IMG/VR virus record: IMGVR_UViG_2728369187_000006
Location: 1-20,975 of that record
Length of the DNA stretch: 20,975 nucleotides
Origin: a virus
Lineage: Duplodnaviria; Heunggongvirae; Uroviricota; Caudoviricetes
Direction: 5' to 3' (one strand)
Below are positions 12,310-15,646 of this stretch, one piece after another. The translations under genes and the position numbers were made by a program. The first letter of the stretch is position 1. Every line of letters begins with the position of its first letter. The notes under the pieces are model-generated. The model was given only the letters and a program-made list of their open reading frames with translations, was not told where the DNA came from and made no database searches.

Positions 12310-12803
12310 TAAGCCCCCACGTAATTCCCTGACAGATACCACTCTTCACCCGATGCAGCGCGCTTGCTGCTTTTCCGTAAGCACCGCTCACGACGCGCCA
12401 GAAAATTGTTTCGTTCTGGCTGGGAGTGGCTTTCACGGAATGCCGCCATCCACACGGTTGCAGCACGACGGTATAAGCCCCTGGACTCCAGTTCTTCAGC
12501 CTGGCGGGTCAGGCACAAAATCACCCGGTGATCGTTAGTGCCGACATAGAAATTGCGCACAGGTCTGGTTTCACGAACTGGTTGTGGTTCCGGCTCCTGC
12601 GCTCTCTCAGTCAGGCGCGGGAAATGTCTGCGTGTATCCCCTTCACAACGGTGAGCCACACGCCCACTCTGACGTAACTTGCTTGCTGACTGCAGAACGC
12701 GCTGCCGTGAGTAACCTGCAAAAGCATCCGCAATGTCTCCGGAAGTACACCCCGGATGGGCTTCAATGAATTTCTGAACGTCATTTAACAGACTCATGAT
12801 CAC
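12309..12803 (-). CDS. Hypothetical regulator with PerC-like C-terminal motif
   Basis: 164 aa. C-terminal AEELESRGLYRRAATVWMAAF...RRERCLRK resembles PerC-family activators from memory. Occupies the slot where lambda has the helicase loader P. ATGA overlap with the upstream initiator gene. Confidence 0.5.
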   Translation of the reverse strand: MIMSLLNDVQKFIEAHPGCTSGDIADAFAGYSRQRVLQSASKLRQSGRVAHRCEGDTRRHFPRLTERAQEPEPQPVRETRPVRNFYVGTNDHRVILCLTRQAEELESRGLYRRAATVWMAAFRESHSQPERNNFLARRERCLRKSSKRAASGEEWYLSGNYVGA

Positions 12804-13741
12804 CCCCTGAATCCTGCCGGGATCTGGCTGTAGTCCACGTTGTCGTAACTGGATTTGAAGTACGGGTCTTCGCGTTTTTCGGTGTACGTGCTTACGGACG
12901 GCGATAAGCGCAGGGAAAGCTCATCCCATTTTTCCCGCAGCTTCGACGGGCTGAGCACGTTACGGCACCAGAACGGATCGCGGCTGACGCGGCTGTACAT
13001 CTCGCAGATTTGTTTGTGAGTACGACCATCCTGCACACACATCAGGCGAATTTCGTTTGCCCAGGCTGTCCAGTTCGGTTCTTTGGGACGAACCACCTCG
13101 CCGTCACATTCGGCAGCCTGCTCGTACAGGGCGATGATTTTTTTCCAGAGCCACTGTGCGCAGGTCAAATCATCCTGCGTTCCCCACTGGCGCTTTTTAG
13201 GGCTGAATACAACCGCATCAGGATGGCGAGTTAAAAAATCCTGTTCAGCCGTCTGCGTGTCCGGTTGCGAAGCGTCCGGACGAGAAGGTTTTTTATCTGA
13301 CGGATCATGTTTTGATTTTACTGACGGATCCCCGCCAGATTCTGACGGGTGAAAACCCGCTTTTTTGCCAGATTTCGACGCATCAAATTTTGACGGGTCA
13401 GATTTTGATGCGTCAGATTTTGACGGGTCAGAATCTGACAGTTGAGAAAATGCCGCTGCCTGAAGCTTCACAACGTTAAGCTGATAAACATTCGACGCAT
13501 TGCGGTTACCCTGGCGACGCGCCTTACGCGTTAACCAGCCTTCTGCTTCCAGCCGTGCGATAGCCGTTCTGACGGTACTCATCCCCGCGCCAATCTGACG
13601 GGCAATGGTTTCAATTGATGGCCAGCACACACCTTCGTCATTACTGAAATCAGCCAGGCGGGCCATAATTGCCACGCTGGATAATTTCATGCCTGACGCT
13701 GCGCAACCATCCCATACATAGCCGGTTAATTTAGTGCTCAT
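12800..13741 (-). CDS. Replication initiator protein (O-like; N-terminal HTH, internal iteron-encoded linker)
   Basis: 313 aa. N-terminal winged-helix-like segment (VAIMARLADFSNDEGVCWPSIETIARQIGAGMSTVRTAIARLEAEGWL). Central repetitive linker (DPSKSDASKSDPSKFDASKS) is encoded by the iteron repeats, as in lambda O. Confidence 0.75.
   Translation of the reverse strand: MSTKLTGYVWDGCAASGMKLSSVAIMARLADFSNDEGVCWPSIETIARQIGAGMSTVRTAIARLEAEGWLTRKARRQGNRNASNVYQLNVVKLQAAAFSQLSDSDPSKSDASKSDPSKFDASKSGKKAGFHPSESGGDPSVKSKHDPSDKKPSRPDASQPDTQTAEQDFLTRHPDAVVFSPKKRQWGTQDDLTCAQWLWKKIIALYEQAAECDGEVVRPKEPNWTAWANEIRLMCVQDGRTHKQICEMYSRVSRDPFWCRNVLSPSKLREKWDELSLRLSPSVSTYTEKREDPYFKSSYDNVDYSQIPAGFRG
13290..13440. repeat. 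Iteron-like direct repeats (candidate phage origin) inside the initiator gene
   Basis: About eight copies of a (T/A)YTGACGG-like unit at 14-24 bp spacing (for example tctgacgg at 13296, 13341; tttgacgg at 13389, 13419), read directly. Confidence 0.65.
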
Positions 13742-13750
13742 GACCGACCT

Positions 13751-14089
13751 CTATTTCCCTGAATTTACGACGAAACTGTTCGAGCGGACTGAAGCACTCA
13801 TGCTCATAGCCTTCGCGGAGGTAGATAACCCGTTGTGTTTCCGGTTCCCAACGAATGACTCTGACGGGCACTCCGTAGTGATCTTTGAACCAGCGGTTAA
13901 CTTGTCGCAAAGGACTGTCTCCTTCTGCCGGTTGAAATCACCCACAGCCCACTCTGCAAAGCTGTGGGTTACAATTTCCCTGTCACCTGGTACATTTACT
14001 GCATAGCAATACTCCACCTTCGCTTTTCCACCCGGTACAGGAAGCGCAATCAGTTGCGAGCGACGGTAGTGTGTTGTTAAACTGTTCAT
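13751..14089 (-). CDS. Hypothetical protein, apparently frame-disrupted, or two small overlapping genes
   Basis: The 112-aa ORF is protein-like for its first ~55 aa, then turns Ser-rich and low-complexity. Another frame over 13746..13931 reads as a convincing protein ([59 protein letters not shown]), with AAGGAG 8 nt before an in-frame TTG. An 8-bp hairpin (13941..13968) sits at the junction. Confidence 0.35.
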
Positions 14090-14649
14090 GCGTTAGTTTC
14101 TCCACAGTCACGACACGCCACGGCGCCCGGAGCTGCACACTCGCGGGCGTCATTACTTTCTGAAATGCAAAAGATTTTGTAGACCAGTGCTGCATGCTCC
14201 TGCAGCTTCGAAATTGAGAGATATAGCTCGTCGTTAATTGCTGTTTTCTCATGCGGTTCCACTACACCGTCTTCGATTGCTGAACGAATCTGTTTTGAAT
14301 AACTGCCGATCTGTTCAATGACTTCCAGCAGACGCTGGTTAATATCGGCGTTGTCCACATCCTCGACGTCAGGAAGAGACACAAATACGCCATTTGCAGA
14401 CTGCGCCACAGCATCAGCAATGAAGTGAGTGCCACCAGCACGCTGTAAAACCATTGCCCATCCCAGCGGAAAAATCTGATCGCCATCTGCACGAAGGCGG
14501 TTGAATAAAGCGTTCTCTGTTACATCCAGCCAGTCAGCCGCTTCAGCGTAACCACCCGGCAACGCCGCGATAGTTTTTCTGACAGCTTTCACGTACCACT
14601 CAGGCTGTTTTTCTATTTTCCAGTGATGCTTACCCACGATTAGCCTCAT
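14086..14649 (-). CDS. CII-like / YdaT-like phage regulatory protein
   Basis: 187-aa ORF directly downstream of the cro-like gene, as in cI-cro-cII and racR-ydaS-ydaT arrangements. Family assignment is from memory and position only. Confidence 0.6.
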
Positions 14650-14680: not shown

Positions 14681-14881
14681 CTAATCTTTCGGATAGATAT
14701 CCGGTCTTAAGTCAGATTTCGTAATTGCACCTGACGTGCATTGCTCAAGTTTTTTAGCCAGCACAAAACTGGCTTTTTTATAGCCATTGAAAACCAGCCG
14801 TAAGTAGCCAGGTGTTGAGCCAACTTTTCCGGCCAACTCGCCCTGCTGTTCTTTGGTTAAAGAGTCCCAATACGCTTTCAT
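14681..14881 (-). CDS. cro: Cro-like HTH repressor
   Basis: Small HTH protein (QGELAGKVGSTPGYLRLVFNGYKKAS) divergent from cI. Start at ATG 14881 is preferred because GGAGG lies 8 nt upstream; the ORF-track start at 14905 lacks an RBS. Confidence 0.75.
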   Translation of the reverse strand: MKAYWDSLTKEQQGELAGKVGSTPGYLRLVFNGYKKASFVLAKKLEQCTSGAITKSDLRPDIYPKD

Positions 14882-14971
14882 ACAATATGTACCTCCGGTG
14901 TACATATTACATGATTAAAATGAACCTTCAAGATACTTGTACCTTAACGGTACAAGGGTTTTAATTTCGTT
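14882..14971. promoter_or_regulatory. Immunity control region (OR-like): two palindromic operators plus divergent pR-like and pRM-like promoters
   Basis: Palindromes ATGTACCTCCGGTGTACAT (14887..14905) and CTTGTACCTTAACGGTACAAG (14936..14956). Minus-strand TTGAAG-N16-TAATAT upstream of cro; plus-strand TTGTAC-N17-TTAATT ending 5 nt before the cI ATG (near-leaderless). Confidence 0.65.
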
Positions 14972-15646
14972 ATGAAAACAATCCATGACATCCGGCGGTC
15001 TAACGCCAGAAAACTGAGAGATGGTGTTGGCGGGAATTCTTCCTTTGCCACTATGATTGATCGCGAGCCAACCCAGACCAGCAGGTTTATGGGAGATGGT
15101 GCTACTAAAAATATCGGTGACAGCATGGCACGACACATCGAAAAATGTTTCGACCTGCCTGTCGGATGGCTCGATCAAGAACACCAGACAACCAACATCA
15201 CAAAAAAACCTGATGTTTCAATCACTAATAAACAAATCACATTAGTCCCTGTCATATCATGGGTACAGGCCGGAGCATGGAAAGAAGTTGGATATTCTGA
15301 GGTTGATTTGAGCACAGCAGAAACGTATCCCTGCCCTGTACCCTGTGGGGAAATGACTTATATCTTGCGGGTGATAGGTGATTCAATGATTGATGAGTAC
15401 CGCCCGGGAGACATGATTTTTGTCGATCCTGAAGTACCTGCCTGCCACGGTGACGACGTTATTGCATTGATGCACGATACAGGTGAAACCACCTTCAAAA
15501 GGTTGATAGAAGATGGGACACAGCGTTATCTCAAAGCGTTAAACCCAAACTGGCCTGAGCCTTACATTAAGATCAACGGTAATTGCTCTATAATTGGAAC
15601 TGTGATTTTCTCAGGAAAACCAAGAAGATACAAAATCAAAGCCTAA
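14972..15646 (+). CDS. cI: cI-like repressor (N-terminal DNA-binding domain plus C-terminal S24 LexA-like autopeptidase)
   Basis: 224 aa. C-terminal S24 features: Ala-Gly cleavage-site candidate (WVQAGAWK), Ser nucleophile context (VIGDSM), downstream Lys. Divergent from the cro-like gene across the operator region. Confidence 0.85.
   Translation: MKTIHDIRRSNARKLRDGVGGNSSFATMIDREPTQTSRFMGDGATKNIGDSMARHIEKCFDLPVGWLDQEHQTTNITKKPDVSITNKQITLVPVISWVQAGAWKEVGYSEVDLSTAETYPCPVPCGEMTYILRVIGDSMIDEYRPGDMIFVDPEVPACHGDDVIALMHDTGETTFKRLIEDGTQRYLKALNPNWPEPYIKINGNCSIIGTVIFSGKPRRYKIKA

Follow-up and report, generated by a model that had tools for sequence, protein, structure and literature searches.

Out-of-frame overlap of ymfM with a DUF4222 gene in the early region of e14-like prophages

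Introduction

The small gene ymfM belongs to the immunity and early region of an e14-like lambdoid prophage found in IMG/VR record IMGVR_UViG_2728369187_000006 (Caudoviricetes); the window referred to below is the whole stretch analysed, which is 20,975 nucleotides (nt) long and corresponds to positions 1 to 20,975 of that record. In the window, ymfM is an open reading frame (ORF) of 112 amino acids (aa). Its second half is open in another frame as well, in which a predicted protein of the DUF4222 family is encoded, and an RNA hairpin can form shortly before this second gene begins. The question raised by the locus is whether it represents a single gene that has been broken, a single gene that is recoded or two genes that share the same DNA. 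An initial annotation had described it as a frame break, with a hairpin at the junction, in the small gene between the CII-like and initiator genes; every element of that description was found at or near the positions assigned to it.

The gene is the orthologue of Escherichia coli K-12 e14 b1148, annotated as 'cell division inhibitor YmfM'. Six substitutions separate the two over a 420-nt alignment; K-12 possesses the same 112-aa ORF with the same neighbours, and the gene order ymfK–ymfT–ymfL–ymfM–replication gene is shared. In descriptions of K-12 e14, ymfM is a single gene, and the DUF4222 frame, the unconstrained tail of ymfM and the hairpin go unmentioned. ymfM has been reported to be SfiC, the SOS-inducible cell-division inhibitor of e14 (Ansari et al., bioRxiv 10.1101/2020.11.19.390815); its expression is reported in the literature to block FtsZ-ring formation and to cause filamentation. 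The explanation favoured here, which is considered probable as a whole, is that two genuine genes overlap out of frame, that the tail of the upstream gene serves as a translated bridge and that the hairpin is an element acting at the level of RNA.

The DUF4222 gene

The second frame, which the initial annotation had placed at 13746..13931, is open from 13937 to a TAA stop at 13733..13731, so that the earlier limits were approximately right; the gene itself begins at a TTG codon within this frame (Table 1). The AAGGAG motif claimed to lie 8 nt before that TTG is exactly there. Relative to ymfM, DUF4222 is in the −1 frame and, correspondingly, ymfM is in the +1 frame relative to DUF4222; the two share 160 nt.

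The impression that the second frame reads as a real protein is borne out by its full-length match to Pfam DUF4222 (PF13973), with an E-value of 8.6e-19 and a score of 67.3 bits, against a gathering cut-off of 27, over profile positions 3–52 of 53. The protein also matches phrog_1343 from end to end; in PHROGs, all three readings of the locus are labelled 'unknown function'. The AlphaFold model, with a predicted local distance difference test (pLDDT) value of 83, contains five strands and a short helix, and the protein is predicted to be a small generic SH3/Tudor/KOW-like β-barrel. The family is small: a set of 1.84 billion proteins yields 80 clusters of it at 50% identity. Its members differ in their C-terminal tails, which are read-through into whatever replication module follows; in the window, the TAA stop is located 8 nt inside the replication gene.

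The DUF4222 frame has its own initiation signals. Among 238 distinct loci, the start codon occupies one alignment column and is ATG in 108, TTG in 101 and GTG in 29 of them. A Shine–Dalgarno sequence precedes it in the lineage representatives inspected, with GGAGG or AAGGGG replacing AAGGAG in other lineages. Taken with the substitution patterns described in the next section, these signals mark an out-of-frame overlapping gene pair, with selection in both frames, and on this evidence DUF4222 is a real gene with a predicted product.

These features bear on the proposal, raised by the initial annotation among others, that the locus is a frameshift pseudogene or the result of a sequencing indel, i.e. 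that an ancestral protein joining the N-terminal domain of YmfM (N-domain) to DUF4222 was broken by a 1-nt indel in the lineage or in the assembly. This is almost certainly wrong. Proteins in which the two halves are fused do exist, and five of them contain the DUF4222 Pfam domain (P0031, P0053, P0059, P0065 and P0090), but each has a junction of its own and is represented by 1–14 member sequences, mostly from Logan/ENA assemblies of raw reads or metagenomes and in one case from NCBI; these proteins represent sporadic indels. The two-frame layout, by contrast, is common to the 238 distinct loci, and the 551-bp core of the window is found with 100% identity in many complete E. coli genomes, with a match in 2700 of 5426 genomes. 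DUF4222 has a Shine–Dalgarno sequence and a start codon of its own in every lineage, and distant relatives carry two separate genes joined by ATGA.

Two rare, longer proteins, P0002 (184 aa) and P0028 (169 aa), contain the whole of ymfM joined to other Pfam domains (PF01726 and PF06576). Each comes from a single Logan assembly, and both are likely to be assembly or indel artefacts.

Selection in the two frames

Four divergent queries, drawn from the N-domain and DUF4222, served to gather loci from genomes and viral contigs; a scan of viral contigs by DUF4222 alignment had given only e14-type loci and was replaced by divergent single-protein queries. Compared with K-12, both substitutions in the N-terminal half are synonymous in the ymfM frame, while each of the four in the overlap leaves the DUF4222 protein unchanged and alters an amino acid of YmfM. 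For the counts of polymorphism, loci were chosen on the other gene, i.e. on DUF4222 identity for the N-terminal half and on N-domain identity for the overlap; the chance expectation for the synonymous share is about 21–24%. Variants in the N-terminal half comprise 14 synonymous and 5 non-synonymous changes in the ymfM frame; read in the other frame, they comprise 3 synonymous changes, 9 non-synonymous changes and 4 stops. Variants in the overlap comprise 22 synonymous changes, 11 non-synonymous changes and 1 stop in the DUF4222 frame, against 3 synonymous changes, 30 non-synonymous changes and no stops in the ymfM frame.

In protein alignments, residues 1 to about 58 of YmfM are conserved (...YAV...G...V...FAEWxVGD) in homologues with an overall identity as low as 43%; the tail is variable and rich in Ser, Thr and Ala. 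AlphaFold assigns pLDDT values of 50–69 to the N-domain and below 50 to the tail (residues 68–112). The earlier view of a real N-terminal half followed by a noise-like C-terminal half is, then, a fair description of the 112-aa protein. Upstream of DUF4222, the N-domain occurs in several types that are very divergent (20–70% identity) yet alignable, constituting a fast-evolving family, and the N-domain also has a stand-alone form of 63 aa (phrog_20047). Judged from these patterns, the N-domain of ymfM is a real gene under purifying selection with a predicted product. The 112-aa frame does remain open from end to end in homologues, which would speak against a second gene if that frame alone were conserved; yet the second frame is conserved too, and better than the ymfM tail.

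The view embodied in the K-12 RefSeq annotation, which recognises the 112-aa ymfM as the sole gene and takes the DUF4222 frame to be untranslated, is hardly credible. K-12 annotates ymfM alone, and the published phenotype is attributed to it, but the substitutions in the overlap follow the DUF4222 frame and not that of ymfM; DUF4222, moreover, is a Pfam family whose product folds confidently in AlphaFold and which occurs as a stand-alone gene in non-overlapped relatives.

An antisense ORF of 90 aa with a GTG start (13734–14006, plus strand) extends across the region where ymfM and DUF4222 overlap, and probably results from the constraints that act on both sense frames.

The open tail of ymfM

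Past the start of DUF4222, the ymfM frame stays open for at least 50 codons in 237 of the 238 distinct loci; the +2 frame does so in none of the 238. As a null, the probability of an open frame was calculated for each DUF4222 protein as encoded by random synonymous codons; it amounts to 0.009–0.067 per lineage, and eight lineages out of eight, with less than 75% nucleotide identity to each other, are open. An internal control that requires no codon-usage model is provided by the comparison of stop-prone codons. Where Val, Leu and Ile codons stand in stop-prone contexts, in which a synonym ending in A or G would give a stop in the ymfM frame, their third base is only C or T (A or G in 0 of 104 codons from 24 representatives), whereas at other places in these genes 42 of 119 codons for those amino acids end in A or G; at the stop-prone sites, turnover between T and C is observed. 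The sole exception to the open frame is a natural GTT→GTA change at DUF4222 codon 4, silent in that gene, which truncates ymfM to the 63-aa form; this allele is present at low frequency (L166; proteins P0063, P0066 and P0077).

The point at which the tail ends is also regular. The junction in the window, TAG-AGGTCGGTC-ATG, reads TAG AGG TCG GTC ATG, with the ymfM stop and the replication ATG in the same frame, and the 9-nt spacer contains an AGG/GAGG Shine–Dalgarno sequence. Of 232 loci, 199 have 9 nt between the ymfM stop and the next ATG, and 228 have no more than 11 nt; every N-domain type examined shows the 9-nt spacing, with the ymfM stop and the ATG of the following gene in one frame. 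Two loci, L007 (Atlantibacter, 2501–2731) and L008 (Entomohabitans, 2501–2737), bear independent internal deletions by which most of DUF4222 is lost, so that its first few codons now adjoin the last ten or so; the N-domain ORF survives in both (76–78 aa), and here too its end falls on the ATG of the following gene.

At its other end, the ymfM ATG overlaps the ymfL stop, TGA (14088..14086), as ATGA. The ATGA at ymfL/ymfM and the TAG-9 nt-ATG at ymfM/replication gene together have the geometry of a translationally coupled chain operating by termination–reinitiation. The precise coincidence of the tail's end with the ribosome-binding site of the next gene suggests that translation itself, and not the peptide, is under selection.

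It might be argued that the tail is accidental, ymfM functionally ending after about 60 residues and the openness of the frame arising from DUF4222 composition and codon context. An accidental tail would suit the unconstrained amino-acid sequence and predicted disorder, the existence of short forms consisting of the N-domain only, the omission of the ymfM frame by the NCBI Prokaryotic Genome Annotation Pipeline (PGAP) and the fact that distant, non-overlapped DUF4222 genes are also open in +1 in 5 of 9 lineages. However, it is distinctly unlikely in view of the exclusion of A- and G-ending codons exactly where a stop would arise, the T/C turnover at those sites, the near-universal openness of the frame and the conserved position of the stop beside the following ATG; some of the distant relatives, besides, do have one or two internal +1 stops.

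In loci of one DUF4222 subtype, with the C-terminus ...WLFRRDFVECEAP (L403–L409 and L125), the ymfM frame has no stop and runs 270–340 codons into the region of the next gene. This extension could be a very long fusion ORF or reflect a misplaced start of the downstream gene.

A conserved hairpin upstream of DUF4222

The hairpin in the window is formed by CCCACAGC (13968..13961) and GCUGUGGG (13948..13941), separated by a 12-nt loop. Minimum free energy folding lengthens it to 11 pairs; the local fold has an energy of −31.4 kcal/mol, with z = −2.9 against shuffled sequences. A 6-bp core of the stem is present in all lineages, distant N genes carry the hairpin too, and it alone was returned as a consensus structure by RNAalifold, run on 61 distinct sequences. 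In 161 distinct N-domains, covering all types, a His/Tyr codon in the 5′ arm covaries almost perfectly with the synonymous third base of an invariant Val codon in the 3′ arm: the combination is CAC/GTG in 98 cases and TAC/GTA in 62, with one exception. Cells are paired at 78–85%, as compared with 25–55% in slid registers, and three to four pairs have changed on both sides. The initial annotation had located the hairpin at the switch point between the frames; the structure is indeed real and conserved, but it lies at the end of the N-domain, its 3′ end being 30 nt before the DUF4222 start in the window and 27–36 nt before it across loci.

This position is important for a further suggestion, that of a recoding event in the form of programmed −1 frameshifting, in which the hairpin would stimulate ribosomes to pass from ymfM into the DUF4222 frame and produce an N-domain–DUF4222 fusion. 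The −1 frame of DUF4222 and the presence of a stable, conserved hairpin near the junction are as such a mechanism would have them, but frameshifting is highly improbable. The −1 frame contains a TGA (13940..13938) directly 3′ of the hairpin, and no X XXY YYZ heptamer exists in the remaining 30 nt before the TTG (13937–13910), whereas a programmed site would call for one in the zero frame, 5–9 nt upstream of the stimulatory structure, with the −1 frame open across it. Stimulators lie downstream of the shift site, but the hairpin would precede every place where a shift could occur. The start codon and Shine–Dalgarno sequence of DUF4222 are conserved, which frameshifting does not require, and in two loci (L413 and L415) a 184-aa gene separates the hairpin-bearing N gene from DUF4222.

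No terminator-like site or promoter was detected at the hairpin, and Rfam has no match there; the single Rfam match is a spurious microRNA (mir-5880) on the iteron-like repeats of the replication gene described below. A guess would be that the hairpin modulates DUF4222 initiation or message stability. An e14-specific small hairpin that would pair AAGGAG with the UUG start was also considered; it was not recovered in the consensus fold and was left unused.

A proposed path of translation through the locus

According to the favoured explanation, translation of ymfM would begin at the ATG at 14089, and its first 60 or so codons would encode a conserved functional domain. At ymfM codon 60/61, AAGGAG-N8-TTG would start the 59-aa DUF4222 β-barrel protein. 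The ymfM frame continues for 52 more codons, in +1 of DUF4222, as a tail with unconstrained sequence and predicted disorder, terminating on the Shine–Dalgarno sequence of the replication gene, 9 nt before its ATG. Selection would act on the tail being translated and not on its sequence; the tail would bridge ribosomes from ymfL/ymfM to the replication-gene start by termination–reinitiation coupling, and it may in addition be a disordered extension of YmfM. The hairpin would be an RNA-level element, probably modulating initiation at, or stability of, the downstream message. Of these points, the structure of the genes, the patterns of selection and the hairpin's conservation are shown by the analysis, whereas the coupling, the hairpin's role and the identity of the division inhibitor are inferred.

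Several observations weigh against this explanation. The short ymfM forms of 63 aa and 76–78 aa occur naturally, so the tail is dispensable in at least some prophages. Ribosomes that have translated DUF4222 also terminate beside the replication ATG, and a bridge is therefore not obviously needed. The distant, non-overlapped DUF4222 genes were meant as a negative control, and the absence of internal stops from the +1 frame in 5 of their 9 lineages may signify that translation of a relay frame predates the fusion, or that openness is underestimated by the null. The double-sided changes in the hairpin trace to few evolutionary events, which makes its covariation solid, not overwhelming, evidence of RNA-level constraint. 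Finally, no paper in the library searched links ymfM with DUF4222, overlapping genes or ribosome profiling, and the search for ribosome-profiling or proteomic evidence of the two products gave none.

Distant relatives and the origin of the long form

Distant DUF4222 members occupy the same operon slot. The N gene upstream of them has about 60 aa and stops at the DUF4222 start (as ATGA in L412), although in some distant loci an unrelated gene, such as KilA-N, is found in this place; the DUF4222 genes themselves stop on the replication ATG. The Cys61 codon of e14 (TGC; TGG in another type) is positioned exactly where the distant genes have TGA, suggesting that the long form of ymfM arose via stop loss. 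In L417 and L418, an ATG at the stop of the upstream gene opens a separate +1 ORF that reaches the replication start.

In a more far-reaching reading, a sequence-agnostic +1 'relay' frame would be conserved across much of the DUF4222 family, the hairpin would be an operator and SfiC would be the DUF4222 protein instead of YmfM. The +1 frame would be fused to ymfM in e14-type phages and would constitute a separate ATGA-coupled ORF in others (L417, L418), its only selected property being to carry ribosomes to the start of the replication initiator. Via the hairpin, the SH3/KOW-like DUF4222 protein or passing ribosomes would set the output of DUF4222 and of the replication gene. Taken jointly, these propositions are unlikely to hold. 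The overlap of two genes with a translated bridge, as set out above, is the explanation retained here.

Other variants of the chain were seen in individual loci. In L412 (1677–1860), the first DUF4222 is followed by a second DUF4222-like small ORF (MTIYRNSKGVTVSVV...), so that the chain runs N gene–DUF4222–paralogue–replication gene, and all of its junctions are ATGA. In L413 and L415 (954–1508), the 184-aa gene inserted between the N gene and DUF4222 has no Pfam match; this insertion shows the N gene and DUF4222 to be separable modules.

Organisation of the early region

The genes of the early rightward operon are arranged in the order cro-like gene, ymfL/CII-like gene, ymfM, DUF4222 and replication gene; positions of these and of the elements discussed above are listed in Table 1. 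The gene upstream of ymfM is matched by the NCBIfam model phage_reg_YmfL.

Table 1. Positions of genes and sequence elements at the ymfM locus in the window
Feature	Position	Strand	Remarks
cI-like repressor	14972..15646	+	
cro-like gene	14681..14905	−	
ymfL, CII-like regulator	14086..14649	−	Phage_CP76 / NF041471; phage-186 CP76 / YmfL family
GGAG Shine–Dalgarno of ymfM	14100..14103	−	10 nt before ATG 14089; kept in divergent loci
ymfM ORF, 112 aa	13751..14089	−	ATG 14089 to TAG 13753..13751; K-12 b1148 orthologue; phrog_1170
ymfM N-domain, residues 1–61	13907..14089	−	Conserved part; purifying selection in ymfM frame
RNA hairpin within N-domain coding sequence	13941..13968	−	8-bp stem here, 12-nt loop
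AAGGAG Shine–Dalgarno of DUF4222	13919..13924	−	Exactly 8 nt before TTG 13910
DUF4222 gene, 59 aa (predicted product), TTG start	13731..13910	−	PGAP WP_001250269.1; Pfam PF13973
ymfM tail, residues 62–112	13754..13906	−	+1 frame of DUF4222, free of stops
Junction TAG-AGGTCGGTC-ATG	13739..13753	−	ymfM stop, 9-nt spacer, replication-gene ATG
Replication initiator-like gene, HTH_36	12800..13741	−	Proposed coupling partner downstream

The replication gene contains five tandem repeats of about 15 nt (CAGATTTTGACGGGT-like) with 15-nt spacing at 13369–13443, and also at 13292–13350. They encode the SKSDxSKSD stretch of its product and have the appearance of origin iterons lying within the initiator gene, an arrangement known from lambda O; it was these repeats that gave the spurious Rfam match.

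Discussion

Overprinted genes are known from phages: lambda Rz/Rz1, the MS2 lysis gene and phiX174 provide cases of two proteins made from one DNA in different frames. As in those cases, one frame of the overlap described here is conserved and predicted to be folded, and the other is compositionally odd and predicted to be disordered. Unlike in those cases, a conserved upstream gene supplies the poorly conserved frame, as its C-terminal extension. Of the possibilities that the initial annotation had listed, it is the one of two overlapping small genes that is supported, by selection in both frames and by the second gene's own initiation signals. The overlap is of a kind already known; it is a new and well-documented instance touching an experimentally studied E. 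coli gene.

The early operon of phage 186 has the same layout, with a CP76-type cII followed by the overlapping genes fil (75 aa) and dhr (66 aa). By annotation, the first encodes a division inhibitor and the second an inhibitor of host replication; the fil/dhr overlap is 14 nt, as against 160 nt here. According to the phage 186 record, translation of replication gene A needs translation to the end of orf84, which is the kind of coupling proposed here. Homology to Fil and Dhr was considered because of a resemblance, noticed by eye, between GRWVPC and GKRWHPC, and was not supported by Pfam or hhalign. An hmmscan search with five N-domain types or sequences at E ≤ 10 gave no match to Phage_186_Fil (PF10893), and hhalign gave probabilities of 0.2% for the N-domain against Fil and 0.6% for DUF4222 against Dhr. 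The resemblance to phage 186 is best described as a positional and functional analogy only.

The two genes have also been divided between annotations. K-12 RefSeq annotates only ymfM (L002, 3823–4161), and PGAP annotates only DUF4222 as WP_001250269.1 (L001, 3291–3470), leaving the ymfM N-domain unannotated (13911..14085 in the window); consequently, neither shows both genes. The gap is a systematic one, DUF4222 being absent from K-12 RefSeq and the N-domain gene from the PGAP genomes examined. Hundreds of distinct sequences also make the locus a well-sampled natural case of a frame that stays open although its amino acids are not conserved, and of an RNA hairpin in coding sequence that is maintained through covariation at synonymous sites. 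These two features would be useful for testing methods that detect overlapping genes and embedded RNA structures.

For e14, the consequence concerns the assignment of SfiC. In the papers identifying ymfM as SfiC, an 'open reading frame' was cloned into pBAD24 and ymfM was deleted by recombineering, without start-codon or frame-specific mutants. The insert of pBAD-ymfM holds AAGGAG, the TTG and DUF4222 codons 1–53, i.e. the whole Pfam domain, and the ΔymfM deletion removes both ymfM and DUF4222. As the published constructs affect both genes, the division-inhibitor phenotype is not assignable to one product. For 35 years it had been asked which e14 gene is SfiC, and ymfM was the published answer; since the DNA called 'ymfM' encodes two conserved predicted proteins, either of which may be the inhibitor, the identity of the inhibitor is reopened.

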